Assembly: GCA_028278265.1 (NCBI GenBank)
Contig: JANQET010000236.1
Coordinates: 801 to 64,800, forward strand
Direction of reading: 5' to 3'
Source: Myxococcota bacterium
GTDB taxonomy: Bacteria; Myxococcota_A; Polyangia; JAAYKL01
Length of the DNA: 64,000 bases
Positions 15,594 to 56,173 of this stretch are shown one piece after another. Every line of letters begins with the position of its first letter. The stretch's first letter is position 1. The notes under the pieces were generated by a model, which saw only the letters and a program-made list of their open reading frames with translations, had not been told where the DNA came from and ran no database searches. The position numbers and the translations under genes were made by a program.

Positions 15594-18125
15594 ATGGGTA
15601 GGAACGGTGTATTTTATGTTTTTGTCTATTATTTGACCTTTGTGGTCCTTTTGGGCACAGGGTGCTCACTCGTCGTCGAGGAGGAGGCTGACGGGGGATC
15701 GGATGGGGGGGGTGATACCGATACCGACACGGATACTGACACCGATACCGATTCCGATACGGATACGGACGGAGATGCCGATACCGACACTGACACCGAT
15801 GCCGATACCGACACTGACACCGATGCCGATACCGATACTGACAGCGATGCCGATACCGATACAGACACCGACGCAGATACCGACTCTGACACCGACGCTG
15901 ATACGGATACGGACGCCGATTCCGATGCTGACACGGATGCTGATTCGGATACGGACACGGATGGCGATACCGATACGGACACGGACACAGACGCCGATAC
16001 GGATACGGACACAGATGCCGATACCGATTCGGATACGGATACAGATACTGAACCCCGATACGATTTCGGCGACTTGCCCAAGGAATACCCCACCGTGCTC
16101 GATCACGACGGGGCGCGGCACCTCATCGACACCAAGCGTCCCTTCCTGGGTGAACAGATCGATTCAGAAGATGACGGTCAACCCCACGAAGATGCGTTGG
16201 GGGATGACGAGGCTGAGCTGGACGACGAGGATGGGATCGATTTCTCCCTGACACCGGTGTGGATCTCAGGAGAAATGGCCGAGATTGTGGTGCACGTCAA
16301 TTCGCCGGGAGATGAGAACGCCTATTTCCAGGGGTGGGTCGATTTCAATGGGGATCGCTTTTTCGACGAGCTGACCGAGCAGGTTTTTGTGGATGAATGG
16401 CTCGCTCCCAAAGAGAACGTGCTCAGCTTCCGCGTGCCGCCGTTGGGTGATACCGACGGTCTCAAATCATATGCGAGGTTCCGCCTGAGCCTCACGCCGG
16501 CGCTTCCGTACTACGGCCCGGCCGACGATGGTGAAGTCGAAGACTACCTGGTGACCCTCAACCAGGAGGATCCTCGCTACGACTTCGGCGACGCGCCGGT
16601 CGAAGGGGGTTTCATGTTCCCCACGCTGCTCGAGCAAGACGGAGCGTACCATCTCATCACCGAGGATCTGATCCTCGGAGAGGCGATTGACGGTGAGCGC
16701 GATGGGCAACCGAACCTCGAAGCGACCGGTGATGACAAAGCGGAAATCGAAGATGAAGATGGAATTAAATTCGACGGCAATATTGTTCCCGGCGCGACCA
16801 ACAACGTACAAGTAAATGTCAAAGGGGCGGTAAACGGAGTGATCCACGCTTGGGTCGATTTTGACGGCAGCGGTGACTGGGATCAGGACGAGAAGATCAT
16901 CGATAACGTCTTGGTGTTGGTGGGATCCAACGACCTCACCTACGCCGCTCCGCCCATCCCCATGCCCGAAGCCGTGCACTGCCGCTTCAGGCTGACCAGT
17001 GTCGCCGGGCCAATGGAACCCTACGGTCCGGCACCGGACGGGGAAGTGGAAGACTACCTGGTCAAAACGGAGATGGTTGAAATCCGTCGCGATTTCGGCG
17101 ATGCCCCCTATGACCCCGAAAAGAATTTCTTTTACCCCACATTGCTGGAACACGACGGTGCGTTTCACGTCATGGATGAAGGGGTCCCAATCATGCTGGG
17201 GTCGTCAATCGATCCCGAGGACGATGGTCAACCTTCGGGCAGTGCCGCCGGTGACGACATCGTCGGTGACGCTGACGAAGACGGCATCGAATTCGGCGAC
17301 CGGTTGATCCCCGGTAATCCGGCGTCGATAACGGTCAGTTTGAAAACCGGTAGTACCGCCACCTTCCTCCAGGGGTGGATCGATTTCAATGGGGACGGGG
17401 ATTGGGACGACGACGGTGACCAGATTTTCCACAACCTCGAGCTGGAAGACGGCCAGCAGAAGATCGAAATCATGGTACCGGTGGTGCCCGGGGGAATCGA
17501 CACATTTGCCCGCTTCAGGCTATCCACTGAACCGGACCTCACGCCCAGAGGGTGGGCCCCCAACGGGGAGGTCGAGGACTACATGGTGGGCCTCGAATCC
17601 GCCGAGATCCCCCTCGATTTCGGTGATGCACCTTCTGACATGGAAACCTGGTACTACCCGACCATGTTCATCGACAATGGCCCCTACCACGCCGTCGGTG
17701 AGCTGTACCTGGGGGGAACGGTGGATCCGGAATTGGACGGCCAGCCCAACAAAGAAGCGACCGGGGACGACAAAGTCGACGATGACGATGAGGACGGCAT
17801 CAATCTCCTCTCCGGGCCATTGGTCTCCGGAACCAAGGCCGAGCTCGTGGTCACCGTTAGTCACGACGGGGGACTGCTCCAGGGGTGGGTCGATTTCGAC
17901 GGCAGCGGTTTTTGGGACTACGGGGCAGAGATGGTGTTCGAGAATGTGCTCTTGAACGATAAAGAAACACAGCTCTCCTTCGACGTCCCCAGCACACTGG
18001 ACGAAGAGGCGGTGTATGCCCGCTTCAGGGTGAGCACCGTAGCGGATCTGCCCTATGAGGGGTTTGCCCCGGACGGGGAGGTCGAAGACTATATGTTCAT
18101 GGTGGCCCCTCCCGCTCCTCGCTAA
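15594..18125 (+). CDS. secreted protein with N-terminal (Asp-Thr/Ala/Ser)n tract and four ~170-aa GEVED-like repeat domains
   Basis: Signal-peptide-like N-terminus. About 120 aa of [11 protein letters not shown] repeats. Four repeats each ending [10 protein letters not shown] and beginning PRYDFGD/RDFGDAP...YPTL...GA.H...DGQP...EDGI.F. Confidence 0.8.
15700..16060 (+). repeat. (GAT-ACC-GAY-ACN)n coding microsatellite-like repeat
   Basis: Seen directly. Near-identical repeat families occur at 20160-20560, 21040-21180, 23190-23450, 29200-29390 and 50290-50700. Confidence 0.9.
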
Positions 18126-19186: not shown

Positions 19187-20635
19187 TCAACGGGTCGTTT
19201 TTCCATATTTTCGTCGTGTAGAGTATTTTTGCTCAAAGGGCGCCAAGTGGCGAATGAGCACCGCGGCTTCACCGGCATGGGAGGTGCACCATTGAGCGAT
19301 CGCTTCCCCGTCGGAGAGGGATATCATCACCGCGGGAATGGCGGCATCCCCGTCGCCGGGCATGGTGATCAATTCACCGTCCGAGTGATTGATGACGATC
19401 ATGGCCACGGCGCCGGCATCGGCCGCATGGGTCACCTTGTCGCTGAAGCTGCACGTGCCTCGGCGAATCAGGGCCGCACTGCCGAGAAATACGCCGGGAG
19501 CAAACGGCTCGCATCCCTCTTCATTGGGCTGGCCGGCGTCCGGCAGAGCCACATCACCGGCCCATTGGATTGGCACAGCGAGCTCCGCCTCGAGCTGAAC
19601 GCCGAGATTGCCCTCTTGGTGGACCACGCCGATCAGCGTTTCGGGGACCGTTCCGGGGGCGGTGATGTCCAACGTGGTGTTCGTGTCCAGCGCCGGATCG
19701 GTCGTCAGGTACAAGCGGCTGACCGCTGCGGCGGGAGCGTTGCCAGATACTTCGCGTCCCCCCAGGGTGACCGGCAACTCGCCCTTGTCCAGGTTGAATA
19801 CCGCCTGATCGACGATCTGGTCGGGCAGGCAGTCCGCCGGATCCCCGGGTACGTGGGAGACGTAGTCCCAGCTCCAGGTTCTGTCCGGAGCGCTGCACTG
19901 GAGAATGTCCCACGTCGCCTTTTGGTGGCCCACGGTCAGGTACAGCGAGTCATCTCTGTGTCCCCATTTCCAGGCGCGGGCGAGCACATACCACTCCCCC
20001 GAACAGGGGATCGGGACGCAGGGCCACGTCGCACGCCCCTGGTGCGCCCCCCGGCTAGCGCAGTAGCTCCCTTCGCCCGCATTGCTCTCGCCGGTTCTCA
20101 TCGGCGGCAGAAACCGGGCCTCTTCGACGAGCAGCTCGACAATTTCATCCCCCAGACAGTCATCACCCGATGCGCCTGTGTCGGTGTCCGTATCCGCGTC
20201 TGTATCGCCCGTATCGGAGTCGGTATCCCGAAGGTGGGCCGCGCCGGCAAAATAGCACTCACAATCCGCTGCATCCTCGAACACGCTGTTTCCGGTCAGC
20301 TCACAGAGGCGATCACAAAAGCCGTCGACCCGCCAACCGCAGGGATCGGCCACACCGCAGGTGCAGGGGGTGTAGTATCCCCTGCTGCAATCCCCTCCAC
20401 AGTCGCTATCCGAATCGGTGTCCGTGTCGGTGTCCGAATCGGCATCGGCATCTGCGTCTGCGTCGGTGTCCGCATCCGTGTCAGTATCGGTGTCTGCGTC
20501 GGCGTCTGTATCAGTATCGGTGTCCGTGTCCGCATCGCCGCAGCTGGGGGGATCCAGGTCACTCGATTCCTTTACACCGCATCCCCAGTAAAGCGAGACG
20601 AGCAGCACCAGTGGGAGTATCCGAATGGGTCCCAT
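19187..20635 (-). CDS. secreted Cys-rich protein with DTDTD linker and C-terminal PA (protease-associated) domain
   Basis: Real start is M92 of the track ORF (MGPIRILPLVLLVSLYWGCG signal peptide) at 20635. PA-like GAVAMIVINHSDGELITMPGDGDAAIPAVMISLSDG. Two DTD repeat tracts. Confidence 0.7.
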   Translation of the reverse strand: MGPIRILPLVLLVSLYWGCGVKESSDLDPPSCGDADTDTDTDTDADADTDTDTDADTDADADADADSDTDTDTDSDSDCGGDCSRGYYTPCTCGVADPCGWRVDGFCDRLCELTGNSVFEDAADCECYFAGAAHLRDTDSDTGDTDADTDTDTGASGDDCLGDEIVELLVEEARFLPPMRTGESNAGEGSYCASRGAHQGRATWPCVPIPCSGEWYVLARAWKWGHRDDSLYLTVGHQKATWDILQCSAPDRTWSWDYVSHVPGDPADCLPDQIVDQAVFNLDKGELPVTLGGREVSGNAPAAAVSRLYLTTDPALDTNTTLDITAPGTVPETLIGVVHQEGNLGVQLEAELAVPIQWAGDVALPDAGQPNEEGCEPFAPGVFLGSAALIRRGTCSFSDKVTHAADAGAVAMIVINHSDGELITMPGDGDAAIPAVMISLSDGEAIAQWCTSHAGEAAVLIRHLAPFEQKYSTRRKYGKTTR

Positions 20636-21285
20636 CAACGCACCTCCTCTCTGCTTTGCCGGGTTTCTCGCGGTGAACCGGGGCCACGGGGATTGGGGAC
20701 GTAGCAAATCCGCTCCCCCTGACTGTCCTCGCCGTCGCAGACCATCCCGTCGAGACAATCGTCGTCCGATTGGCAGCGAATAACGCAATAGTATCGCATT
20801 CGCCCGTCCGCGCCCATGCGCTCGTAGCCGCAAAATTCGGTTCCCGGAGCGATGTCCGGGCAGTACTCCGGATCCGGGGTGAACCCGTTGCAGCATTCCG
20901 CGGCGCAATATCCCCTGATGGGATCGATCTCATCGATGATGATGCACCACGCTTCGTCCGAACAGTAATTGACTTGAACGTGACAGTACCCGCCCCACTC
21001 CTCGGCACCCATCGGCGCGTCACACTCAGCGGTATCGGTGTCCGCATCGGTGTCCGTATCGGTATCCGTGTCTGTATCGGTATCCGCGTCCGTGTCCGTA
21101 TCGGTATCCGCGTCCGCGTCCGTGTCCGTATCGGTATCCGCGTCCGCGTCCGTATCGGTATCCGTGTCCCCTGCGCCTCCGTCACATTCGGCGGTGTTGT
21201 CCTGCCAATCCGATTCGCCGTTGCACATGGCGACGCCAAAGAGACACCAGATCGCCCCGATGACTTGTGTGATGTTGTCTGTCAT
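20635..21285 (-). CDS. small secreted cysteine-rich protein with (DT/DA)n tract
   Basis: Signal peptide MTDNITQVIGAIWCLFGVAMC. About 20 Cys in 216 aa. Its stop TGA overlaps the ATG of the downstream PA-domain gene (ATGA). Confidence 0.55.
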   Translation of the reverse strand: MTDNITQVIGAIWCLFGVAMCNGESDWQDNTAECDGGAGDTDTDTDADADTDTDTDADADTDTDTDADTDTDTDTDTDTDADTDTAECDAPMGAEEWGGYCHVQVNYCSDEAWCIIIDEIDPIRGYCAAECCNGFTPDPEYCPDIAPGTEFCGYERMGADGRMRYYCVIRCQSDDDCLDGMVCDGEDSQGERICYVPNPRGPGSPRETRQSREEVR

Positions 21286-21316: not shown

Positions 21317-23008
21317 TTACTCCAGCAAATCGAAATAAATTTGAGGCTTTTTGCGTTCGAGCGCCGTTTCGACCACCCGGGCCAGGCGCAAGAGGGTGTG
21401 CTCCTGCCAGTGCCGACCGAGCGCCTGGAGGCCCACCGGTAAACCATCATCGTTGTAACCGGCGGGAAACGAAATCGCCGGATATCCACCAAAATTGCCC
21501 GCCAGGACGAAGCGCATGATCTCGGTCAGGACCACCAGATCGGATTCGCCGGATCCCAGCGCGCGGGGGTTGATCGGCGGCGCGGTGCAGCCGGTGGTGG
21601 GCGTGAGGATGACGTCCACCTGCTCCAATGCGTCGCTAAAGGCGCGCATCACCTCCGCGCGAACCCGCTGCGCTTTGACATAGTCACTGCTGGTGAAGTG
21701 GCGGGCCAGGGCCAGGTTGATGCGAATATCGAGACCGAAATCCCGACGATGGTCGCGGTAATGGGGCTCCATCGCGCTGACCATCTCGGCGGCAATCGTC
21801 AGTAAGTGACCGATGCGGAGTTGTTCCAGTCCGGGGATTTCAACCGCTTTGAGGGTCGCCCCTTTGTCGGTGATGAGGTGCAGGGTGTGCTCGCATTCCC
21901 GGACAACGCTCGCCTCGGCATCGCGAAACCAGGGCTCGTACACGCCGACGGTCATGCCGGTGAGATCCGAGGCGTCCACTTCTTGAAGGTGTACCGGCGG
22001 TTGAATCATTGTTTGTCGATCGTTCGAATCCGGGCCGGCGATAACGGCGTAGGCCAGGGCCACATCGGTCGCGGTTGCGCCCAGTGGGCCCCCATGGGTG
22101 ACGCTCCAACAGATCGGGGTTGTGCCGAATTCGCTGATCCGGGCGTAGGTCGGCTTGAGCCCCACCACACCGCAAAAAGCGGCCGGAATTCGAATGGATC
22201 CACCGCCGTCGGCGCCGATGGCTACCGGACATAGGCCGGACGCCACACTAACCCCTGCGCCGCTGGACGATCCACCGGGATAGTGCTCGGGATGGTAGGG
22301 ATTGCGCGGCGTGCCGAAGTGGGGATTGAGCCCGGTCACGCCGAGCCCGATTTCGTGCATGTTCGATTTTCCGATCAGCAGTGCTCCGGCCTCCCGCAGG
22401 CGGGCCACCACGGTGGCGTCGCGCTCGGCGGGTTTTGTACCGAGGAATTTCGTGCCGACCCGGGTATGGAAAGGCACCTGGTCGAATTGATCCTTCACGC
22501 TGACCGGTACGCCGTCAAATACGGAGAGGGGCGTTCCCTTGTTGAATCTCACTGAGGAGCGCTCTGCCTGTTGCAACAAATCCTCGGCACGCCATTCGAC
22601 CAGCGCGCCCAGAGGCGGCTCGCTGTTTTCGGACGCATCAATGCCCTGGAGGACCCGATCGGCGACCTCGGTGGGTGTCACCGATCCGCAGCGGTAAGCA
22701 GAGGCAAAGTCGAAGACCGTCCGGAACGTGAACCCGGGGGGCGCTTGCGGGGTGGACTGCAGCACTGCCTCGATACGATCTGAATCGATGGGAGTGCGCT
22801 GCAGATCGGCCGGCGCCGGCGGCTCGATTGGCTTCAACACCGGAGCGCTCTTGGGCAGGAGGGTGCGAAAGCCGCTAATCCCCATATCCCGGAAGAGGCT
22901 GGGGCGCAGCAATCGGGAGAAGGCGCCGGTTTCAATCAGTGCGGTGAAGATCCTCAGCGGCCAGCCCGACAGGCGGGGCGCTTTTGCGGGTTTGAGATCG
23001 TAGACCAT
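21317..23008 (-). CDS. amidase signature (AS) family amidase
   Basis: GGSSSGAGVSVASGLCPVAIGADGGGSIRIPAAFCG AS motif. Real start ATG at 23008 (MVYDLKPAK) with GAGGGGAA RBS. The track ORF to 23410 reads through the opposite-strand repeat region. Confidence 0.85.
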   Translation of the reverse strand: MVYDLKPAKAPRLSGWPLRIFTALIETGAFSRLLRPSLFRDMGISGFRTLLPKSAPVLKPIEPPAPADLQRTPIDSDRIEAVLQSTPQAPPGFTFRTVFDFASAYRCGSVTPTEVADRVLQGIDASENSEPPLGALVEWRAEDLLQQAERSSVRFNKGTPLSVFDGVPVSVKDQFDQVPFHTRVGTKFLGTKPAERDATVVARLREAGALLIGKSNMHEIGLGVTGLNPHFGTPRNPYHPEHYPGGSSSGAGVSVASGLCPVAIGADGGGSIRIPAAFCGVVGLKPTYARISEFGTTPICWSVTHGGPLGATATDVALAYAVIAGPDSNDRQTMIQPPVHLQEVDASDLTGMTVGVYEPWFRDAEASVVRECEHTLHLITDKGATLKAVEIPGLEQLRIGHLLTIAAEMVSAMEPHYRDHRRDFGLDIRINLALARHFTSSDYVKAQRVRAEVMRAFSDALEQVDVILTPTTGCTAPPINPRALGSGESDLVVLTEIMRFVLAGNFGGYPAISFPAGYNDDGLPVGLQALGRHWQEHTLLRLARVVETALERKKPQIYFDLLE

Positions 23009-23096
23009 GCGCACCGTTCCCCTCACTTTGACAATTGTCGGATGGTATCGAGTTTCCCTACACGGGGTCAATGGCCGATTGGGCCGGGATAGGATC

Positions 23097-25058
23097 TCAG
23101 CGACCGGGGGAGATGAGAGTGATGAATTTGACGAGGAGAGTGCTGTATCGGCTGCTGCCCGTTGAACGACAGTTGCAGCTGCCCTCACTGGAGTCGCCAT
23201 CGTCGTCCCCGTCGGCGTCCCCATCCCCATCGCCGTCCGCGTCCCCGTCGCTATCGGTATCGGTATCGGCGTCGCTGTCCGCATCGGCGTCGCTGTCACT
23301 GTCCGCATCGGCGTCGCTGTCACTGTCCGCATCGGCGTCCCCGTCGCTATCGGTATCGGCGTCGCTGTCACTGTCCGCATCGGCGTCGCTGTCGCTGTCT
23401 GTGTCAGCATCGCTGTCGCTGTCCGAATCGGCGTCGCCGCTGCCGTCGAGGGCCTCGATCGCCGCCCGGATGTTGGGGAGGGGGCCGATGTGTCCGCCGC
23501 TACCCTGGGGTATCCCGGTTTCGACGAGGAGCTCCCGCATCTCGACCGAGGTCAGCGGATGGCCCAGCTCTTGAATGGCGAACTCCTGAACGAGTGCCAC
23601 GGCCGAGGTGGCAATCGGCCCGGCCGAGCTCGTGCCGCTGAAACTGGAGGTGTACTCCTGGTTGGGATCATTGCCGTAGGTGGCAAATCCCCCATAGCCG
23701 AGGGTAAAGACGTTTTGCCCCCATCCCTGGATATGAACGCATGAGCCGTAGGTGCTGAAATCGAGCTTATTGTGCTGGGTGTTCGACGATCCCGCTCCCA
23801 CGCGGATGGCGCCGTTGTCTCCGCGGGCGTTGTACTCATCGTAGGTCGGCGAATCCATATTTTGATTGCCGTTGCCAGCCGTCTGTACCACGATAATGCC
23901 CGCATCGACAGCTTCCTTGACGAGATCCCAGTTGGCCTTGGGGATGTCGGGCACCCCACCGTTGCCACGCTGCATCTCCATCAACATGATGTCTCCGATG
24001 TCCAAATCCTCGATCGCCGCGGCGAGAATCTGCGTGTCCCCGTGCACCACCGAGTACACCAGCCCGGATGCTTCGGGCACACTGCCCTGGATGCCGTAAC
24101 CGTTTTCACCGGCGAGCAACAACCCCATTACCGCGGTGCCGTGATCTTCGTAGTCGTTTGTTTGCCAGGGTAGGCCATAGGCGATGTCCTGCTGGTGTAG
24201 ATCTTCGTGAACATCCTCATCGGCGTGGTCCAGCGCGCCCCAGCTGTGCTCGTGGTCCGTGATCGTCAGGCCCGCTCCCCGCAGTCCGAGGCTCCAGGCA
24301 TAGTCCACGTCGATGCCCGGATCCGGACCGCGGTAATCCTGCTCGCCGACCAGATCCGGTGTGGTCGGGGCGAAGTCGACCGGTGGGGGCTCGGGGTGCG
24401 CCGGATCAACCGATGCGTACTGAACCTCGGCCAACCCCTTGAGCGCCGCGGCCACTTCGAGCAGGCGTTGGGCAGGCCCGTTGCCCATCGTAACGGTCAG
24501 GAGCCCGGAGAACTCGAGCAGGTTGAAGCCCTTGTGGTCGGGGAGATGACGGCGTACCGGATCGCGGAGCCGTTGGCGCTGCTCGCCACGGAGCAATACA
24601 GCGCGTGCAAAGCGCAGGTCATAGCGGTCGATCAATTCCTGTACTGGGGCCCGTGGGCGTTGTCCGGACAACCGCAACGTGCCGTTTTCGTCCACATCAG
24701 CGATATACGCCGGATGAAATTTCACGATGAGTCGGTACTCCGACACTCCGGGAAGCAGGCGATGCCCGCCGAGGAGCCGCCGAAAAGCGTCATCCGGCCG
24801 GCCGCCGATGATCGCTCGGAGGCTCGTTTCCAATCGGTCGAGTGTGGCCATTGCCCGCCCGGTGGAACGTCGCTCGCCCAACAGCCGACGTGCCTCAACG
24901 AGATGGGACAACGTCTGTTTCAAGGCGGCCTGCTGATAAGGGTTGGCAGCATCCCCGATGGTTTGACCGGCAGGCTCGGCCGCCATGGCGCCGCTCGCCC
25001 AGAGCCCGACCAGTAAGCCGATCAGCAGGGCCCAAAAGAACCAGTTTTCTTTTTTCAT
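23097..25058 (-). CDS. secreted subtilisin-like serine protease (S8) with C-terminal (DSD/DAD)n linker and Cys-containing hydrophobic tail
   Basis: HGTAVMGLL (His) and [12 protein letters not shown] (Ser) motifs. Real start at 25058 ([16 protein letters not shown] signal peptide) with GAGGAGG RBS. C-terminus [13 protein letters not shown]...[28 protein letters not shown]. Confidence 0.85.
23190..23450 (-). repeat. (GAC-AGC/GCC-GAT)n coding repeat (DSD/DAD linker of the subtilase)
   Basis: Seen directly; it generates long spurious ORFs in several frames. Confidence 0.9.
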
Positions 25059-29106: not shown

Positions 29107-32028
29107 CTATCCCAAAAGGGCGGAGAGCAAGGCAGTCACCGACCGCAGGGGTGCCGGTGCAGCGGCGCCGGGCGTGCGGCAACCGCAGGATCCCCCATCG
29201 TCGTCGCTGGCGTCGTCATCATCGTCGGCCGAGTCGTCATCATCATCGGTCGAGTCATCATCGTCATCGCTGGCGTCATCATCATCGTCGGCCGAGTCGT
29301 CGTCATCGTCGGCCGAGTCGTCATCATCGTCGGCCGAGTCATCGTCATCATCGTCGTCGTCGCCGGTGTCGGTATCCTGATCCTGTTCCACCGTGTACAG
29401 ACAGACATCGTCGATGGTCCAGCCGCCGAACTCCAGCGCCGCATCGCTGGTCAGCTCCCAGCGGATCTCCACCTCGGGCTCTTCACCGGCCAGCTCGCTG
29501 ATGTCCAGGTCGAAATGGATCCACTCTCTGTCCCGGTGATGCACGGTGCCGTCCTCTTCAGCGGTGGCCAGGTTGGCCCAGACCTCTTCGTCGTTGACGT
29601 ACAATTTGGCCTGGTCGTGAAGGCCGTCCTGCACGTTCAGCCAGCGCTTGAACTGCAGGCGCACGACCTTGTACTCGGTGAGATCCCACTTGGGGCTGCG
29701 CAGGGTGTTGCTCACGTTGGGCATGTACATGCCGTCCCAGGACTCCTCGAGCTTGAGGTCGTTGCCCCAAACGTTCGTTCCGCTGGCGGCGGCTTCGGGA
29801 TCCCCTCCTTCGCCGGCCGGCTCGCCCCAGTTCCAATCGTCGGCCCCGTCCACGTTATCTCCGGCGAGCAGCTCGTGAGTCCAGTCCGGATCCTCACTCT
29901 CGAAATCTTCACACAGAATTTCAATCAATGGACCGACGTAGACCCGGTAGAATGGTTCGGCTTTGTTGTTCGGACGCATCACCTTCTCCCCGGACTGGGC
30001 CTTGATCGCCTCCACCCGATAGTAGAGCTCGGTGCCCTCTTCCTGCCCGGGAATCTCGGCCTCGTATGCATCACCACCGACCGAGTCCATCTCGATCTCT
30101 GCCCAGCTGGCCCCGTTGTCGGTGCTGTACACCACGCGGACGTTACCGATTTCACTGCATTCATCGTCATTGCCCACACTGACGTCGGCCTCGATGGTGA
30201 TCGGGGTCAGGGGAGTTTCGATCGCTTCGACCGGTTGATGGCTCAGCTCGATCTCCATCGAGTTGTCCTCGGCCAAACCGTGGAGGGAAAACTCCCGTCG
30301 AATGATGCAGAAGTTGGGGGTGCCGTCGGCCAAATCACCGTTGTCGTCGTCAGCCAACAGCGCGGATTCGTACGTGGTGGGGATGTTGCCCGATGTCTTC
30401 AGCATGCCGGCCATGATCACGTCGGTGGTGTTGCGACCCACGACCCAACCGTGCCGCTCCACCAACGCCTTGCGCAAATCCCACAGGGCGCCGCCGAGAA
30501 TCAGTCCGGTGATGTGCACATCGCTATCCTGGTCGTCGGGCCAGACCATGTTCGGCTCGGTGTCGCGGATGCCGTCCGGATCGCCGATGAAAAAATAGGC
30601 GCCGAGGATCGGGCTGTGAATGATCATCTGGGAGGTGGCGTCGGAGTACCCTTCGCTGGAGGCCCCGTCGAAATAGCCGATGCCGTCGATGATACTGGCC
30701 CCGTGGAAGCTGTGGCCGAACTCGTGGTAGACCACACTGCCGAGCATCGCCGTGTTGTTGCACCGATTGTCGGCAGATAAAAAGTTGATCGAACCGCCGC
30801 TGGACCAGGCGTTGCAGCTGCCGTTGTAGTTGACGTTGGTGATGATCGCCTTGTCGAGCAAATCCACATCGTCCACCACCGGTCCGATCGCCTTGGCGTG
30901 CTCCCGCATGACCGCGGCAAAACGGAACGAATCGACCTGGGACTGCTGGAATTCCGATCCGTCAGAGGCCCAGATATAGGTCTCCCCGTCGTCGATCTCC
31001 GCGGAAAGCTGCAGGTCGCTCCCCGCTTGATTGTTGACCTCGACGTACTTTCCCTTGAGCTGTGCAGTGATCTGTGCCGAATCCCCACTGGCGGTGAACT
31101 CCCCGTTTTCATCGGTGTATTCACTGGCGCCGTCTACCGTGATCCGCATGTGGGGTGCCAAGTTATCGATCAGATCCATCCCGGGTACCGGTGCTTCATC
31201 GTGGTGTTTGAGGTGGATTTTGGCGGTCATGAACATGCGTTTGTCTTTGAGCACGAAGAGCTCGCCGCTCTTGGCGTCGATGTAGGCGGTCCAGTCCCCC
31301 ACTGCCGGTGCGCTCAGCTCGACCGCATAGACCAGCTTGAAGGCCACCGAGTCCCGCCCCATGATCGGAAACGCGGCCAGCTGGTTCTCCCCGCTCTTGA
31401 CGGTCACGCCCCGCTGCCGTAGCGCCTCGACGGCCAATTGGGCGGCCTTGGCGGCTGTTAGCCGCGGTTTGGCGTCAAAGGGCAGGGCCGGAAAATTGCG
31501 CACACCGAACATCACCAATCGACCGGACATGATCGCGACAAAATTGCTCGATCCCAGTATCGGTACCCCGTTGAGGGTCTGCCGGTGACTGACGAAGCGG
31601 ATGCCGTTGGATAACACGTTGCGCCAGGGTCTGAGGCTCGTCGGTGAGACGCTGTCGAACAGCAGTTCCCGGTGCTCGACCCAAAACTGTTCGGCCACCT
31701 CGAGGGCCGCCGCCGCATCGGACATGGCCCGGGAGTTGACGTGAAACCCTTCGCCCCAATAGCGCTTGAAGTAACCGTTCATCCCCTCGTCCCGCACCAC
31801 CCAGCGACTGCTGTGTCGCTCGGTGAACACTCGCGGTGCCTGTCGCAGCGCACCGGCGTTGGAGATTCCGGCCCGGCCGGAGATCCACTTGGTCCCCCGG
31901 GGATAGTGCTCAATGCGCAGACCATCGGGCTCGCGAAACGCTTGGGCGTCGACAGCGAAGCCGATCACCAGCAGCAGAGTCGCCGCGAGGGCCAGCAGTT
32001 GACGGACTTGTTTGGTTTTACATGCCAT
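29107..32028 (-). CDS. secreted thermolysin-clan (M4/M36-like) zinc metalloprotease with C-terminal extra domains, poly-Asp linker and Cys-containing tail
   Basis: Signal peptide MACKTKQVRQLLALAATLLLV. VVYHEFGHSFH (HExxH) followed by SSEGYSD (third ligand Glu). Tail DDDDDDSADDDDD...DGGSCGCRTPGAAAPAPLRSVTALLSALLG. Confidence 0.8.
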   Translation of the reverse strand: MACKTKQVRQLLALAATLLLVIGFAVDAQAFREPDGLRIEHYPRGTKWISGRAGISNAGALRQAPRVFTERHSSRWVVRDEGMNGYFKRYWGEGFHVNSRAMSDAAAALEVAEQFWVEHRELLFDSVSPTSLRPWRNVLSNGIRFVSHRQTLNGVPILGSSNFVAIMSGRLVMFGVRNFPALPFDAKPRLTAAKAAQLAVEALRQRGVTVKSGENQLAAFPIMGRDSVAFKLVYAVELSAPAVGDWTAYIDAKSGELFVLKDKRMFMTAKIHLKHHDEAPVPGMDLIDNLAPHMRITVDGASEYTDENGEFTASGDSAQITAQLKGKYVEVNNQAGSDLQLSAEIDDGETYIWASDGSEFQQSQVDSFRFAAVMREHAKAIGPVVDDVDLLDKAIITNVNYNGSCNAWSSGGSINFLSADNRCNNTAMLGSVVYHEFGHSFHGASIIDGIGYFDGASSEGYSDATSQMIIHSPILGAYFFIGDPDGIRDTEPNMVWPDDQDSDVHITGLILGGALWDLRKALVERHGWVVGRNTTDVIMAGMLKTSGNIPTTYESALLADDDNGDLADGTPNFCIIRREFSLHGLAEDNSMEIELSHQPVEAIETPLTPITIEADVSVGNDDECSEIGNVRVVYSTDNGASWAEIEMDSVGGDAYEAEIPGQEEGTELYYRVEAIKAQSGEKVMRPNNKAEPFYRVYVGPLIEILCEDFESEDPDWTHELLAGDNVDGADDWNWGEPAGEGGDPEAAASGTNVWGNDLKLEESWDGMYMPNVSNTLRSPKWDLTEYKVVRLQFKRWLNVQDGLHDQAKLYVNDEEVWANLATAEEDGTVHHRDREWIHFDLDISELAGEEPEVEIRWELTSDAALEFGGWTIDDVCLYTVEQDQDTDTGDDDDDDDDSADDDDDSADDDDDSADDDDDASDDDDDSTDDDDDSADDDDDASDDDGGSCGCRTPGAAAPAPLRSVTALLSALLG
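29200..29390 (-). repeat. (GAC-GAC-GAT-GAY)n coding repeat (poly-Asp linker)
   Basis: Seen directly. Confidence 0.9.
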
Positions 32029-50219: not shown

Positions 50220-50283
50220 ATCGTCTGTCTATGCTGGGATGGGGCGGGCGGCCGGATAGGTGCGGGGGAAGTGCGGCTTCGCA

Positions 50284-50793
50284 CTAGAGTTCGATAATGA
50301 TGTCCGTGTCCGCGTCCGTGTCATCGTCGTTGTTGTCGTCATCATCATCATCGTCATCATCATCGTCGCAATCATCATTGTCGTCGTTGTTGTCGTCATC
50401 GTCATCATCGTCATCATCATCGTCGCAATCATCATTGTCGTCGTTGTTGTCGTCATCATCATCATCATCGTCATCATCATCGTCGCAATCATCGTTGTCG
50501 TCGTTGTTATCATCATTATCATCGTCATCGTCATCGTCATCGTCGTCATCGTCATCATCGCCGTCGTCGCAGTCGTCGTCTTCGGTGTCGTCATCGGGCT
50601 CGTCGTCCGTATCGTTGTCCCCGTCGTCGTCTTCGGTGTCCCCTTCGTCGCAGTTGTTGCCCCCTTGATCGTCATCAGTGATCAGGCAGCCGTTTTCGTC
50701 CAGGTAGAAGTCCGGCTCGAGACCACAGGAGGTGAGCATGAAAAATGCGAAGATAAAAACCACTGCGAAACACAACCATTCCAACGTTTTCAT
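50284..50793 (-). CDS. lipoprotein consisting almost entirely of poly-Asp/Asn with periodic Cys
   Basis: Start at M22 of the track ORF (MKTLEWLCFAVVFIFAFFMLTSCG lipobox). Mature protein about 80% D/N, three tandem D10-NN-DD-N-DD-C-D units. Confidence 0.6.
   Translation of the reverse strand: MKTLEWLCFAVVFIFAFFMLTSCGLEPDFYLDENGCLITDDDQGGNNCDEGDTEDDDGDNDTDDEPDDDTEDDDCDDGDDDDDDDDDDDDDDNDDNNDDNDDCDDDDDDDDDDDDNNDDNDDCDDDDDDDDDDDNNDDNDDCDDDDDDDDDDDNNDDDTDADTDIIIEL
50330..50560 (-). repeat. tandem repeat (~60-63 nt unit, 3 copies) within GAT/GAC-rich tract
   Basis: Unit ...gtcgcaatcatcattgtcgtcgttgttgtcgtcatc... recurs at ~50362, ~50422 and ~50485. Confidence 0.8.
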
Positions 50794-50948
50794 TTGTTCT
50801 CTCCTTGCTCGTCGGTTCTGATTTCCGGGCAGCTGCAAGATGAATACCATCGCCATTTAACTGGATTTTCAGGCCGAATTTGGTGGGTCAGCCGCTGTTA
50901 CGGTGTGCGGTCCAGTGTGCTGACAGTGTGCCGCACAGCCAGGTGTCC

Positions 50949-53900
50949 CTACTGGGCAACCCCTTGGGGTGTGGAGGGGCGCAGGGGGACCCGGTTGGCC
51001 ATCGAGGGACTGGTGATTGAGGGAATACCGATCGGCTCGGGTTCACCATTGGGAAACTTCGGTGAGAAGAAGGCCATACCATCCGGGCGATCCCGGCGGA
51101 TGGCGATGATCTCGCGCGCATCCAGGTCCGATGTCTCTTCAGCCACAATCATCACGTAGTTGACACCGTGCTTGAGCGGCAGCTCGGCTTCAAAGGTGAC
51201 TTCTGTGGGATCAGTTGCATCTGTATTGGATTTGAAAAACACCTTCTGCTCGTCCACGAAAATGTAGACATCGCGCACGTTTTTGTCGTCGCTGACCCTG
51301 CCCTTGAGTGTGATCGTGTCCGAGCGCACCACTTGCTCGGTCTCGTCAATGGACAACCGGGGCGGTGCATTCAACACGAAGTCGAGAGAGGGGTTGGCTT
51401 CGGCGGCTTGGTTCGCCGTGACCTCCCGGCGGTCGATCCATCCGATGCGGTGCTCGTCGATGCGGACGCGATAGAATTCGCCAATCCGACCATCAACCGA
51501 TCCGGTATCCGATAGGTACGCCACGATCGGCGCGTCATCCCGGGGCGCCTGTCTCAAGGCGGCTCGCTTTTCCTGCGGAGCGACGGTCGCCGTGTGGGGC
51601 TCGACCCGCTGGGCCGGGGTGATCGGAATGGTGATCTTTTCCACTGCATAAACCCGCAGATCCACGTCGGCGATGGCCAACTCCAACTTGGCCAGCGACT
51701 CGGTGAATTCGGGCTTCACGTCAAATGAAAAGACAATTTGGTGGCGTTTGCCCGGTTCGAATTTGCCGAACGATTCCCGGCCGCGCACCATGAACAGCTC
51801 TTTTCCCGAGAGGCTCTTCAAGCTGGCATAGCTCTCCAGGGAGGCCCCTTCGCCGACGTTTTCAACATCTACAATAAATTCAACAGATTCACCGGGCTGG
51901 AGACCACCGTCTCCATTGCCCCCTTTTTGATCGACCATTTGGAAGCCGTAAGCGAATCTGGGCCGGGGCAGCGCCTCGACCTGAAACCGCAGGGCCGTCG
52001 AGGTGACCGGTCGGCTGTTGGCTTCGGTAAAACTGAACCGAACATCGTCCACCCGGCTCAGAGCGTCCTTGGGAACCTTGAATTTCAACTCGCGGGTGAT
52101 CGTCTGTCCCGGTTCGATTCTGCCGAAAGCCAACTCCCGTTCGTCCAACGGCCTGAAATCACACCGGGTCGTCGAATGGAGACGATAAACCGTACCGGGG
52201 CCCCGATTGGTCACTGCCATGCTGATCCGGTGGGGCTTACCCGGTTCGAGGGGCTTGGGGTCGACCAGTTTGGCGATGACCGAAACATCTACGGTTCGAT
52301 CATCGGGCTGAACACTCCAGTCAATCCCCAGCTTTTTGAGCGCCTTGGCCAGTCGCCGTTCCTCGATATTGGTGCGTTCCTTGATCAAAGAGACGAGGGA
52401 CGCCGCGTCGACGTTGGACTGACCGGACTGAGCCATCTCCAACACCAGATCCCGGGCGAAATCAATCTCGAAATCGGGTTTGAACGATTGGTCCGCTGCC
52501 CCTGCGGCGGCCGGAGGCGGGGCCGGGGTCGGGGTTGGGGCAGCCGGGTTGGGGCTCTGACCCGTACCGGAGGTTGCAGGTTTAGGGGTCGGGGTCCACA
52601 AGTAGTTGAGCGTGGTGGCCGGGCGCTTGGCCGCTGCCGAAAGTCGCGCACTCTCGAAATGGTGGTCCAGATCGCTCTCCCGGTAGCGGGGTTCGACCAC
52701 CAGATCGAGCCGCTCTTCATCGGCGCGCATGGGCAGTGATTCCACATGGGGGGTCACCCCCACCGACTGGATCGAAATGTCTCCGGGGGTGAGGTATTGG
52801 GCAGTGGTCAACTTGAGCGCCGAGTTGTTGGCAAATCCCCTCTCGTAGAGCACCTGCACCGAGCCCTTGCCGAAGGTTCGCTGGCCGACCACGAGGGCGC
52901 GGTTGTGGTTTTTCAGCGCGCCGGCGACGATCTCAGAGGCCGAGGCGCTGCCCGCGTTGACCAGTAATACGATGGGATAGTCGGGCTCGTTGTTGTCGTC
53001 GCGCGCCCTTCTGATGTCCCGCTCGGCCGGTCCCTGTCCGGCGGTCGTTACGATCACCCCGCGCTTGAGGAACCGGTCGGAGACCCGGATTGCCGCATCC
53101 AGCAAACCGCCGGGGTTGTTGCGCAGGTCGAGCACCAACCCCCGGATATTCTTGCGCTCCAACTCGGCGAGGTGCTTGTTGAGATCCTTCGCCGTGTTGC
53201 CCTGAAAGTCCTTGATGCGGATGTAACCTATTTTTTTGGACAAAAGCTGGGATTCGATGCTGCGCACCTCGATAATTGCGCGGATGATTTGAAACGCTAT
53301 TGGCTCTTCCCACCCCTTGCGCACCACTTCGACGGCCACGGTGGTTCCCGGATCGCCGCGCAGGAGAGTAACCGCGTCATTGAGGGCCATGGAAACCGTT
53401 GAGACATCGTCGATTTTGACGATTTTATCACCCGATTTGAGCCCGGCGATATCGGCCGGGGTGCCGTCAATCGGTGAAATAACGGTCAGCGCCCCGTCCC
53501 GAATCGAAATCACAATGCCCAGGCCGCCGAACTTCCCTTGGGTCTTGTCTTTCATGTTGCGGTACATCTCCGGCGTCAGAAAGACGGAATGGGGATCGAG
53601 GGTCTGCAACATCCCGTTGATCACGGAGTACTCGAGCTCGATGAACCGTTTCTTATCCTCCTTGAAGTTGCTCCTTAAGAAATCAAAGACATCTTTGATG
53701 CGCTGCAGCAGCACCCAGGGGGTGGTCAGCTCATCGAGGGCAAACTGCCGCTCCTCGGTGTTGAAGCGAATGAAGAGCTGTTCCCCCTGCTCCCGCACCA
53801 GCACATTGGCCACCTCCCGTTGAACGGCGCGGGTCGCGGCGATGAACATCTCCCGGGCGTCGATGCGGGAGGCGTCGATGTAGTGCTTTTGGACGAGGTT

Positions 53901-54089
53901 AATCGTGCGGTAGAGCGCCTTCAAGGACTGCATGTCGTGAGGGACGCGGGCGCGTGCCGGTGTCGACCGCTGGTCCACATCGAGCTCCAGTCCCTGGTGG
54001 GCGGGGTCCCAGAATGTCACATATGCGGCAATGGCCAGCACCACGGCAATGAGCAGGGCGCCGCGAAACCCTTTGTGTTTACCCGTCAT
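50949..54089 (-). CDS. S41 family C-terminal processing (tail-specific) protease, unusually large (1046 aa) with long C-terminal extension
   Basis: PDZ domain (GLKSGDKIVKIDD), S41 catalytic region (LVLDLRNNPGGLL, TFGKGSVQ), N-terminal TM anchor, about 550-aa C-terminal region of unknown function. Confidence 0.82.
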   Translation of the reverse strand: MTGKHKGFRGALLIAVVLAIAAYVTFWDPAHQGLELDVDQRSTPARARVPHDMQSLKALYRTINLVQKHYIDASRIDAREMFIAATRAVQREVANVLVREQGEQLFIRFNTEERQFALDELTTPWVLLQRIKDVFDFLRSNFKEDKKRFIELEYSVINGMLQTLDPHSVFLTPEMYRNMKDKTQGKFGGLGIVISIRDGALTVISPIDGTPADIAGLKSGDKIVKIDDVSTVSMALNDAVTLLRGDPGTTVAVEVVRKGWEEPIAFQIIRAIIEVRSIESQLLSKKIGYIRIKDFQGNTAKDLNKHLAELERKNIRGLVLDLRNNPGGLLDAAIRVSDRFLKRGVIVTTAGQGPAERDIRRARDDNNEPDYPIVLLVNAGSASASEIVAGALKNHNRALVVGQRTFGKGSVQVLYERGFANNSALKLTTAQYLTPGDISIQSVGVTPHVESLPMRADEERLDLVVEPRYRESDLDHHFESARLSAAAKRPATTLNYLWTPTPKPATSGTGQSPNPAAPTPTPAPPPAAAGAADQSFKPDFEIDFARDLVLEMAQSGQSNVDAASLVSLIKERTNIEERRLAKALKKLGIDWSVQPDDRTVDVSVIAKLVDPKPLEPGKPHRISMAVTNRGPGTVYRLHSTTRCDFRPLDERELAFGRIEPGQTITRELKFKVPKDALSRVDDVRFSFTEANSRPVTSTALRFQVEALPRPRFAYGFQMVDQKGGNGDGGLQPGESVEFIVDVENVGEGASLESYASLKSLSGKELFMVRGRESFGKFEPGKRHQIVFSFDVKPEFTESLAKLELAIADVDLRVYAVEKITIPITPAQRVEPHTATVAPQEKRAALRQAPRDDAPIVAYLSDTGSVDGRIGEFYRVRIDEHRIGWIDRREVTANQAAEANPSLDFVLNAPPRLSIDETEQVVRSDTITLKGRVSDDKNVRDVYIFVDEQKVFFKSNTDATDPTEVTFEAELPLKHGVNYVMIVAEETSDLDAREIIAIRRDRPDGMAFFSPKFPNGEPEPIGIPSITSPSMANRVPLRPSTPQGVAQ

Positions 54090-54119: not shown

Positions 54120-54518
54120 TTAATCGGATGGTTTATCGTCATTTTCTTCGGTCGTTGGGGTCAGTTTTCGTATCGGTCGGCGCTCCACTTGTAGCTCCAA
54201 AACCTCGGTTCCTCTCTTTATAGTTAATAGCACATTTGAGCCCACCGGTCCGCGAATTGCGTCCCGCACCGCTTCGTGGGAGGCATTGGTGACGTCCTCA
54301 CCGTCCACGGCGAGGACCCGATCCCCGCGCTTGAGCCCTGCGGTTTCACTGGCCGATTGCGGCCGCACTTCGTACACAATAGTGCTCTTGTCCTTTGCCC
54401 GGTAGCGAAACACCGCATCGGCACTGCCCACCCAAGTGTTGGGAGTCGACATGCACCCTATGAGAATCATGTACCCAATAAGCCATACGAAATGTGATTT
54501 GAACCATTTTCCCAACAT
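54120..54518 (-). CDS. small PDZ-domain protein
   Basis: GLKRGDRVLAVDGEDV PDZ motif. N-terminal TM/signal. Confidence 0.5.
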   Translation of the reverse strand: MLGKWFKSHFVWLIGYMILIGCMSTPNTWVGSADAVFRYRAKDKSTIVYEVRPQSASETAGLKRGDRVLAVDGEDVTNASHEAVRDAIRGPVGSNVLLTIKRGTEVLELQVERRPIRKLTPTTEENDDKPSD

Positions 54519-54739
54519 GATGTAGTCGCTCCTGATATAAAAGGTGTCGTTCTTTACTATCACGATCCAAACTCGGCTATAATAACTTTGTATTCGATGG
54601 GACCAAATAGTATTTGTCTAAAGTGAAAAAGAAATATAACAACGTAAAAAAATTTTAGGCGCGGTTCGAGGATTTAAAAATGACTAAAATCGGACAGTCT
54701 CACCAATTTTTGTCGCTGTTTCGACACCGATTCGGGCCA

Positions 54740-56173
54740 ATGCCTCGTACTGCGGGGTGGGGCCGATCGCTCCTCGGCTGGATGGGTGTGCTCTGCTGTT
54801 GGGCATCAATGCTGGGGATGAGCGTGGGCTGTTCGGACGACCCGGACCCGAATGAGGAGATGGACGCGGGCGCCGACGCGCAAGAGGACGAGGACTCGGA
54901 GACCGAGACCGAAACCGAGACCGATTCCGAGGTGGATACCGGCGAGAACGAGATCCCGCCTCCCCTGCCGGAACTGTGTGATATCTCCCTGCTCGAATAT
55001 CCAGTGAGCGGCGACGGGGACGGCCGATCCCCGGATATCGCTGCCGACGGTACGGCCATGATCACCTGGGCACACAACGATCAATCCGGCACGACCGGGT
55101 GGCGGCTGATCGTCGCTCCATACGATCCGTCGGTTCTCGATCATGCGGACACCGACAGCGATGTGGACACGGATACGAGTCCCCTCGGCGACGAAGTGAT
55201 CATCGAATCCACCGGACCCAAGAGCAGACAGCCTGTGGTGGCCGCGCGTTCCAATGCCTTTGGATTGGCTTGGTTGGACGCGAGGGATGACGATGAGTGC
55301 GATCCCAATAACTGGTCTTCTTGTCAACGAGAGTTGTTGTTTCTGCTCGTCGATCAAATGGGACAGCCGATCAATGGACCGGTGCCGGTCCAGATCACCA
55401 ATCTGACCACTTCTGGGGGATCGGTGGTGACCCGGCCGTCCATCGTGGCCACAACGACGGGCTACTTGCTGGTCTGGAACGAACGCAGCGGAGGTAGCGT
55501 ACAGGTGATGGCCCGTGCCCTCGACGCCAACGGGGATTTTGTCGATGCGGCGGCGCATCAAGTGTCCGAGGCAGAGGGGGTCTATGAGACCCAGAGTCCG
55601 GAGGTGGCGGCGCGAGGAACCAATGTGGTGGTCGTCTGGCTCGCCAAGAGTCAGTACGGTCTGCACTCCCGGGCTCTCGGCACCAACGGGGGACCCGTCG
55701 GAGCGGTACAGGAAATTCAATCGGATATTTGGTGCCTCGATCCGGCTATTGCCGCCGGCAGTGACGGGTTTGTCGTCTCCTGGAGCTCCCGGCCGGTGAA
55801 CGATCACGAAGTGTTCACGATGAAATTGAATTCGGTCGGCACCCCCGTGGGGCAGCGCCATCGCATCACCTGGACCACGTCGGACGTCAACCATTCCGCG
55901 ATCGCCTGGAACGAAATCCAGTCCAGGTACGGGATCAGTTGGCAGAGCAGTTTGGCCAACGGAAGCGACGACCCATTTCCCAGTCCGCAGGTCTTTGTAT
56001 CGGTACTGGACAACGACGGTAAATTGGCCAGCGTGCCGGTCAAGGTGTCAGACGATCCCAATCCGGGAACGGAGATGATTCTGGCTGCGGACGGTAGCGG
56101 GTGGACCGCAGCCTGGCAGGTGATCGGTGCCGGACGAAAGCGAGTGTTCATCGGACGCATGAAGCTCAAGTGA
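54740..56173 (+). CDS. lipoprotein with acidic ETETETD tract and ~8 W-containing repeats (beta-propeller-like)
   Basis: Lipobox SVGCSD. Recurring ~45-aa units ending in xxxW (ITWAHND, LAWLDARD, LVWNERSG, VVVWLAKS, VVSWSSRP, IAWNEIQ, ISWQSSL, AAWQVIG). Confidence 0.45.
   Translation: MPRTAGWGRSLLGWMGVLCCWASMLGMSVGCSDDPDPNEEMDAGADAQEDEDSETETETETDSEVDTGENEIPPPLPELCDISLLEYPVSGDGDGRSPDIAADGTAMITWAHNDQSGTTGWRLIVAPYDPSVLDHADTDSDVDTDTSPLGDEVIIESTGPKSRQPVVAARSNAFGLAWLDARDDDECDPNNWSSCQRELLFLLVDQMGQPINGPVPVQITNLTTSGGSVVTRPSIVATTTGYLLVWNERSGGSVQVMARALDANGDFVDAAAHQVSEAEGVYETQSPEVAARGTNVVVVWLAKSQYGLHSRALGTNGGPVGAVQEIQSDIWCLDPAIAAGSDGFVVSWSSRPVNDHEVFTMKLNSVGTPVGQRHRITWTTSDVNHSAIAWNEIQSRYGISWQSSLANGSDDPFPSPQVFVSVLDNDGKLASVPVKVSDDPNPGTEMILAADGSGWTAAWQVIGAGRKRVFIGRMKLK

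Follow-up and report, generated by a model that had tools for sequence, protein, structure and literature searches.

A predicted aspartate-rich lipoprotein without a folded domain in an uncultured myxobacterium

The gene and its tandem repeat

We analyzed a stretch of 64,000 nucleotides from a Myxococcota bacterium (assembly GCA_028278265.1, contig JANQET010000236.1, positions 801 to 64,800), referred to below as the window. In it a minus-strand gene encodes a putative lipoprotein precursor of 169 amino acids whose mature part consists mainly of aspartate and asparagine, with cysteines at intervals (Table 1). Such a gene had been proposed in a preliminary description made from the sequence, and the gene does look real with respect to its Shine-Dalgarno sequence, its lipobox and its composition. 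The longest open reading frame (ORF) at the locus extends from 50284 to 50856. The convincing start is the ATG at 50793, with AAGGAG before it at a spacing of 7 nt.

The non-repetitive first 78 codons have GC fractions of 0.60, 0.31 and 0.74 at the three codon positions, which compare with about 0.6, 0.42 and 0.75 in the Pfam-supported genes of the window; the other two frames of the gene differ from this pattern. The use of the two aspartate codons is likewise similar, with a GAT:GAC ratio of 42:48 in this gene and 164:170 in the Pfam-supported genes. Four ORFs overlap the repetitive tract, and all frames are open within it, giving poly-Ser and Val/Ile-rich translations on the plus strand and a Thr/Met-rich one on the minus strand. 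Only the Asp frame combines a Shine-Dalgarno sequence and ATG with a signal peptide and a lipobox, and only this frame spans the whole gap between the neighboring genes.

Tandem Repeats Finder gave a period of about 60 nt over the repetitive part of the gene, with 90% matches and 5% indels, so that the description of the tract as a perfect tandem repeat was too strong. The three best copies (50324-50380, 50381-50437 and 50438-50497) measure 57, 57 and 60 nt and are about 98% identical, being distinguished by two synonymous transitions (GAT/GAC and AAT/AAC) and one extra GAT codon; a degenerate fourth copy accompanies them. Every difference between copies is either synonymous or a whole codon and therefore keeps the reading frame. 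The sequence indicates that the repeat is near-perfect and apparently recently amplified. The longest pure GAT run is five units, and the tract lies wholly within the ORF. The locus had also been likened to a contingency locus, a reading that the repeat does not support. Because all units and indels are multiples of three, a change in copy number alters the length of the product and not its expression, and neither a frame shift nor a change of promoter spacing is to be had from units of 57, 57 and 60 nt with a single whole-codon indel.

A second assembly covers the 3' part of the gene. In the Logan assembly of run SRR20820740, positions 6358-6430 of contig L140 (SRR20820740_1069249) correspond to positions 50284-50356 of the window, and a partial gene is called there in the Asp frame. 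The two assemblies are identical through the convergent cyclase gene downstream, the 64-nt spacer that separates it from the stop codon (50220-50283), the stop codon itself and the C-terminus; the Logan contig stops after 33 nt of the first repeat copy. No paper mentioning this run was found. This match of the stop codon and the 3' flank confirms the 3' end of the gene. The cyclase gene is itself called intact. It had been suggested that the tract might turn out to be the linker of a longer protein interrupted by a sequencing error. This possibility is ruled out by the identical stop codon and 3' flank in the second assembly and by the lack of room downstream.

The open frame could still be a by-product of a GAY-rich tract that is non-coding or mis-assembled. 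The alternative ORFs over the tract (123, 148 and 299 aa) would fit this explanation, as would the halting of k-mer assembly inside the repeat, the absence of the product from a 15-billion-protein collection, and a spacer scan that yielded neither a terminator nor a sigma-70-like promoter. We nevertheless consider it quite unlikely, given that the translation start, signal peptide and lipobox all belong to the frame that fills the gap, that the third-position GC of the 78 non-repeat codons also marks this frame, and that both ends of the gene lie outside the repeat. Moreover, poly-Asp and Asp-Thr tracts occur in secreted proteins of the window that have Pfam support.

Table 1. Positions in the window of the aspartate-rich lipoprotein gene, its parts and related features
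Feature	Position	Strand	Basis or remark
Poly-Asp lipoprotein precursor coding sequence, 169 aa	50284..50793	minus	ORF list and translation; includes stop TAG (50284-50286)
Shine-Dalgarno sequence AAGGAG	50801..50806	minus	Read from sequence; 7 nt before ATG at 50793
Signal peptide (residues 1-22) and lipobox Cys23 (L-T-S-C, +2 Gly)	50725..50793	minus	Sequence; AlphaFold2 helix at residues 3-24
Non-repetitive acidic head, residues 24-74, GLEPDFYLDENGCLITDDDQGGNNCDEGDTEDDDGDNDTDDEPDDDTEDDD, with Cys36 and Cys48	50572..50724	minus	Translation
Poly-Asp/Asn core, residues 75-161, 68 Asp and 12 Asn in 87	50311..50571	minus	Composition, unit alignment
C-terminal tail DTDIIIEL	50287..50310	minus	Translation; identical in Logan assembly
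Tandem DNA repeat, period 57-60 nt, 3.8 copies	50324..50545		Tandem Repeats Finder score 348
Sigma-54-like -24/-12 element TGGTATTCATCTTGCA (suggestive)	50834..50849	minus	40 nt upstream of ATG, in 155-nt spacer
MXAN_5808-family S41 C-terminal processing peptidase with PDZ domain	50949..54089	minus	TIGR03900, 995.5 bits (cut-off 661); Pfam S41 and PDZ
Acidic low-complexity tracts of other proteins	15711-16055, 54830-54952	plus	(DT)n, (DS/DT)n, (DDDDDSA)n or DE-rich
Acidic low-complexity tracts of other proteins	20399-20539, 21019-21171, 23178-23438, 29170-29418	minus	(DT)n, (DS/DT)n, (DDDDDSA)n or DE-rich

Composition and layout of the predicted lipoprotein

The precursor begins with MKTLEWLCFAVVFIFAFFMLTS, followed by Cys-Gly. 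It has a lysine in the n-region, an uncharged h-region of 14 residues and the sequence L-T-S-C ending at Cys23, and this arrangement (MKTLEW-LCFAVVFIFAFFM-LTS-C23) is that of a bacterial lipoprotein signal recognized by Lgt and LspA. The lipobox rule used was [LVI][ASTVI][GAS]C with the cysteine at about position 15-35, applied by eye and by a script rather than by a trained predictor.

Of the 147 residues of the mature chain, 90 are Asp, 16 Asn, 7 Glu, 7 Cys, 7 Gly and 6 Thr, while Lys, Arg and His are all absent, which gives the chain a net charge of about -97. Asp makes up 61% of the chain and Asp plus Asn 72%, rather than the roughly 80% first estimated; a value of 92% is reached only in the core of 87 residues (75-161). 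As had been pointed out, tryptic peptides should be absent from the mature protein, which has no tryptic sites. Cysteines are found at residues 23, 36, 48, 75, 103, 123 and 142, so that six remain besides the lipidation site.

Four units, each led by a cysteine, make up the core, with lengths of 28, 20, 19 and 20 residues. The first is degenerate (CDDGD14NDDNNDDNDD), and the others read CD12NNDDNDD, CD11NNDDNDD and CD11NNDDDTDA. Three units of Cys, Asp and Asn had been recognized from the start; their form had been given as D10-NN-DD-N-DD-C-D, and both the longer Asp runs and the divergent end of the last unit are evident from the alignment.

A single-sequence AlphaFold2 model has a helix for the signal peptide (residues 3-24), a low-confidence hairpin (29-31 with 37-39) and coil elsewhere. 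The mean predicted local distance difference test score (pLDDT) was 59, falling to about 53 in the coil part, and the predicted template modeling score (pTM) was 0.19. The model is consistent with intrinsic disorder.

The Asp-rich tract starts 17 residues after Cys23. The protein thus has the layout of what we call acidic-tether lipoproteins, a descriptive class with no curated family, in which a lipidated cysteine is followed by an acidic tract and then by folded cargo. There is no such cargo here: the protein stops 8 residues past the acidic tract, with no domain match and no predicted fold.

Acidic tethers in the window and in other bacteria

A six-frame window scan identified seven further acidic tracts in six other proteins of the same stretch of DNA, each protein having a signal peptide, a lipobox or a C-terminal tail. 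A protein with four GEVED domains carries a (DT)n tract of 115 residues after its lipobox, and (DT)n tracts are also present in a PA-domain lipoprotein and in the protein next to it. In an S8 subtilase a (DS/DT)n tract lies between the catalytic domain and a C-terminal GSCNCR tail, and elsewhere a (DDDDDSA)n tract precedes a tail resembling MYXO-CTERM. A 973-aa protein is also among the window proteins with an acidic tract. A 497-aa neighbor has a DE-rich tether after its lipobox, and its orthologue in a relative has a Ser-Asp-type tether of its own.

The C-terminal tails that follow acidic tracts on the minus strand lie at 29107-29170 and 23097-23180. The first, GGSCGCRTPGAAAPAPLRSVTALLSALLG, scored 16.9 bits against the MYXO-CTERM model (TIGR03901), below the cut-off of 20, and the second gave no match. 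The 697-aa ORF at 21317-23410 (minus strand), which has an amidase-like body, begins with about 90 Thr/Pro/Met-rich residues that are another frame of the subtilase (DS/DT)n tract; given this overlap, its true start is probably further downstream.

Beyond the window, a scan for Cys-Asp9 in one genome per species of the Genome Taxonomy Database (GTDB) found at least 119 sites across many phyla. Among the matches listed, 13 are lipoproteins in which the lipobox cysteine is followed directly by 10-60 residues of poly-Asp and then by a folded domain. Poly-Asp tethers on bacterial lipoproteins are therefore widespread. The preliminary description knew of no characterized bacterial protein of this composition, a statement that has to be narrowed accordingly, since poly-Asp after a lipobox cysteine is not unusual; what does stand out is the density of Asp, 68 of 87 residues in the core against at most 42 of 87 in the lipoproteins among the matches listed, together with the absence of cargo. 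A literature search found no study of poly-Asp, Asp-Thr or Asp-Ser tethers.

Several other poly-Asp proteins were seen in the same scan. Three unclassified metagenome-assembled genomes (MAGs; L022, L039 and L099) contain a lipoprotein family that recurs among them, about 195 aa long and with no visible annotation. In its members a signal peptide and C[SG]C are followed by a poly-Asp stretch of 40-50 residues, then by C[ED]G[YL]D and a conserved domain, about 120 aa in length, whose last residues are TCGDFA. In Brachybacterium, Dermabacteraceae and similar organisms (L023, L026, L090, L109, L115, L116 and L122), a conserved CEWDDGE(L/W)EC sequence precedes 11-30 consecutive Asp at the C-terminus, an actinobacterial use of poly-Asp that is of a different kind. 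A putative 83-aa ORF in Bacillus sp. N9 contig_7 (L098, 668-697) lacks a signal peptide and is 94% Asp, about 75 of these residues forming one run. Among the matches listed, it is the only prokaryotic ORF denser in Asp than the lipoprotein described here.

The acidic-tether lipoproteins are the closest counterparts in layout. Like the protein described here, those with 40-60 residues of poly-Asp (L022, L096, L121 and L138) and the window proteins with Asp-Thr or DE-rich tethers have a disordered Asp-rich tract after the lipobox cysteine. In every comparable case, however, the tether leads to a folded domain, whereas nothing follows it in our protein, and the regular punctuation by cysteine and the NNDDNDD spacer are specific to the latter. 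Disordered N-terminal linkers as such are normal in the outer-membrane lipoproteins of E. coli (10.1101/2021.01.05.425367).

Two further systems share part of this design. The staphylococcal Clf and Sdr adhesins have a Ser-Asp stalk, an acidic dipeptide stretch of low complexity between a surface anchor and a functional domain, whose behavior has been described (PMC9881980). The Asp-Thr and Asp-Ser tracts of the window score on the Ser-Asp regions of the NCBIfam Sdr/Clf models, whereas the poly-Asp gene does not, and these adhesins differ in being Gram-positive, LPXTG-anchored and equipped with a ligand-binding domain. The lipoprotein export signal (LES) places acidic residues directly after the lipidated cysteine, as do Bacteroidota lipoproteins with C-D9-10 in our genome scan (L044, L045 and L082). 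The LES is limited to a few residues and is specific to a phylum; the myxobacterial protein has G-L-E-P after its cysteine.

Among the acidic tethers that are common in this organism and in many bacteria, the protein described here thus stands at the extreme, with no domain attached; it is known from a single MAG and has no relatives that have the gene.

Relatives, neighbors and possible function

No recognizable family was found for the protein. A word-indexed search with the full protein gave no match from 8000 candidates, the 78-aa non-repetitive head yielded no candidates at all, and comparisons with Pfam and NCBIfam at E <= 10 and with the Protein Data Bank (PDB) returned nothing. No paralogue was found by tblastn in the window or in the other loci that were compared. 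A metagenome scan for DDNDDCDDDD detected 17 unrelated tracts, mostly of low GC content and eukaryote-like. Thrombospondin type-3-like repeats also consist of Asp/Asn-rich units with spaced cysteines, and their resemblance to the core is compositional only: the calcium-binding family PF02412 (DxDxDGxxDxxD) is not among the matches, no Pfam family having been found at E <= 10.

The similarity with LptM (YifL) is confined to the head. LptM is a small lipoprotein of the lipopolysaccharide translocon with a +2 Gly, a disordered tail and a short head that reads C-G-L-x-x-x-[LF]-Y (PMC10567701), and our protein, with C-G-L-E-P-D-F-Y in place of C-G-L-K-G-P-L-Y, might be a distant member of this group. 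One of its seven borderline matches in the exhaustive search described below (P0127, E = 9e-4, with CGLKGDLYLEDDED) is an LptM member according to NF047847 (30.2 bits, cut-off 27.7), and its head, CGLKGDLYL, resembles CGLEPDFYL; the +2 Gly and a short disordered tail are common to both proteins. The match is made up of a few residues plus composition, however, and the tail of our protein is poly-anionic and twice as long. Neither the whole protein nor its N-terminal 56 residues matched PF13627 or NF047847 at E <= 10, nor did the LptM chains of the PDB match. The host is a myxobacterium, and lptM-like genes are reported to be virtually absent outside the Proteobacteria (PMC10567701). Membership in the family was rejected on these two grounds, the failure of the family models and the taxonomic range, and we regard even a distant relationship as extremely improbable.

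The nearest gene upstream, on the same strand and separated by a spacer of 155 nt, encodes an S41 peptidase with a PDZ domain. We give it as context, and the proximity does not by itself imply a functional link. Its homologues with a name are from the Myxococcota and Polyangia, the nearest being only 58% identical, and no close relative was found in the collections searched; a scan of genome contigs with the S41 protein as query gave no match. Relatives whose S41 proteins are 57-58% identical keep the upstream gene order (FHA protein, unknown lipoprotein, small PDZ protein, S41 peptidase). Downstream of the peptidase, one of them has SRP54, and another an Fe-dependent repressor and FeoB. Given the conserved upstream genes and the differing downstream ones, the poly-Asp gene is lineage-specific and lies at a break in synteny.

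Outer-membrane lipoproteins are known as partners of S41 proteases, as in NlpI-Prc of E. coli and LbcA-CtpA of Pseudomonas. The poly-Asp protein might similarly serve as partner, adaptor or substrate of the adjacent peptidase by offering its C-terminus, I-I-I-E-L-COOH, to the PDZ domain. The last three residues, I-E-L-COOH, have the form of a PDZ ligand, which we mention as an idea only. After the signal peptide, hydrophobic residues cluster nowhere but at this extreme end, where they take a hydrophobic-X-hydrophobic form; the gene follows that of the peptidase on the same strand with no terminator found between them, and a second, stand-alone PDZ protein is encoded at about 54130-54530, immediately before the peptidase gene. 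The pairing of the peptidase with the poly-Asp gene is not conserved, however, since homologues of the MXAN_5808 type have unrelated genes downstream, and the known S41 partners are TPR proteins and not polyanions. The spacer also contains a candidate promoter for the poly-Asp gene itself. A partnership of this kind seems to us very unlikely.

This candidate is a sigma-54-like -24/-12 element. A promoter and terminator scan of the spacer upstream of the poly-Asp gene found no intrinsic terminator and no sigma-70-like promoter. The element TGGTATTCATCTTGCA is the sole match in the 64 kb to TGGYAY-N5-TTGCW, against 0.14 expected, a pattern picked after the site had been seen. With TGGCAC-N5-TTGCA at two mismatches, 7 matches were found in the window against 16.5 expected, which is no enrichment. 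The statistics are weak, and the site is a suggestive hint of regulation and nothing firmer.

The reading that we prefer, tentatively and short of calling it probable, is that the protein is a disordered polyanion anchored in the outer membrane that would act through its charge, chiefly by binding divalent cations. The precursor would be exported by the Sec system and then lipidated at Cys23, and the +2 Gly, by the rule established for E. coli, should let the lipoprotein leave the inner membrane for the outer one. There the chain could act as a hydrated, polyanionic brush, binding and buffering Ca2+ and Mg2+ with a low affinity and a high capacity. The six other cysteines, an even number, may form disulfide loops or cross-links in the oxidizing envelope. 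The gene could have originated in the same process as the acidic low-complexity tethers that this lineage places between membrane anchors and cargo domains, its module of 19-20 residues (C-D11-NNDDNDD) having presumably been amplified by recent tandem duplication of 57-60 nt, so that its length would be evolutionarily labile. By analogy, roles in cation binding, in mineral formation or as a spacer are all plausible.

Several points weigh against this reading. Acidic runs can abort translation in bacteria through intrinsic destabilization of the ribosome (PMC9718836). An occupied exit tunnel counteracts this effect (10.1101/2021.02.02.429294), and about 75 residues precede the poly-Asp core. 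K-mer assembly fails within the tandem repeat, which leaves a single metagenomic assembly as the source of the copy number in the window. An exact look-up of the product with four start variants in the 15-billion-protein collection was negative, and both neighbors from the same 64,891-bp MAG contig are present in it, so the gene caller did not call the gene on this contig. An exhaustive phmmer search over 1.84 billion cluster representatives found no homologue, its seven matches (E of 3e-4 to 9e-4) all being compositional. The gene is also missing from the syntenic position in the relatives with 57-58% identical S41 proteins. Given these last two results, no argument for function can be drawn from conservation.

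Many of the same observations could be explained if the gene were young or decayed and selectively neutral, even if its product is made. It might be the anchor and tether left behind when a rearrangement removed the cargo of a lipoprotein, or an ORF enlarged by slippage and duplication in a lineage inclined to acidic repeats. Its position is exactly where synteny with the relatives ends, it is an ORFan among the cluster representatives and was left uncalled on the MAG contig, and all 13 of the comparable lipoproteins (among at least 119 sites) carry a cargo domain after the tether. Its C-terminal TDADTD also resembles the start of the Asp-Thr tethers of the window. However, a frame of 169 codons is intact through the repeat and is accompanied by a strong Shine-Dalgarno sequence, a canonical lipobox and gene-like third-position GC. 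Nor is there a remnant of a cargo domain, with only 64 nt left before the convergent cyclase gene, or a donor paralogue in the window. On balance a neutral gene appears somewhat unlikely. If the protein is only a cargo-less remnant of this kind, it would be an ordinary by-product of repeat instability.

A stronger form of the preferred reading, the charged lipoprotein, is suggested by comparison with Aspein, a shell matrix protein of Pinctada fucata. In Aspein a signal peptide and a short N-terminal domain are followed by a long poly-Asp region of SG(D)n blocks, and this disordered acidic protein has been studied for its role in calcium carbonate biomineralization (10.64898/2026.06.03.729799). 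The likeness extends to the order of the parts, in that the signal peptide and a short N-terminal segment come before a mixed acidic stretch and then a long region of punctuated poly-Asp blocks, and both proteins are predicted to be fully disordered. The punctuation is Ser-Gly in Aspein and Cys/Asn in the blocks C(D)11-12NNDDNDD of our protein. Aspein is a secreted animal protein whose link to minerals is experimental, whereas the bacterial protein is predicted to be lipid-anchored and has no sequence relationship to Aspein, which was not among the matches of the exhaustive search. The gene might nevertheless encode a dedicated lipid-anchored polyaspartate, a convergent counterpart that would sequester Ca2+ and Mg2+ and control or prevent mineral nucleation, with loops formed by its cysteines, a length set by the number of modules, and regulated expression, possibly through sigma-54. 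We think this unlikely.

Poly-Asp and Asp-Thr or Asp-Ser tethers occur commonly in uncultured bacteria beside lipid or C-terminal anchors. Provided that the protein is made, it would rank as the densest envelope-anchored polyanionic protein found in this survey, with about 97 negative charges on 147 residues. It would then provide a test case for the translation and export of long acidic runs and for roles of tethers beyond spacing, and also for whether a bacterial protein polyaspartate may handle Ca2+, Mg2+ or mineral as such proteins do in animals.

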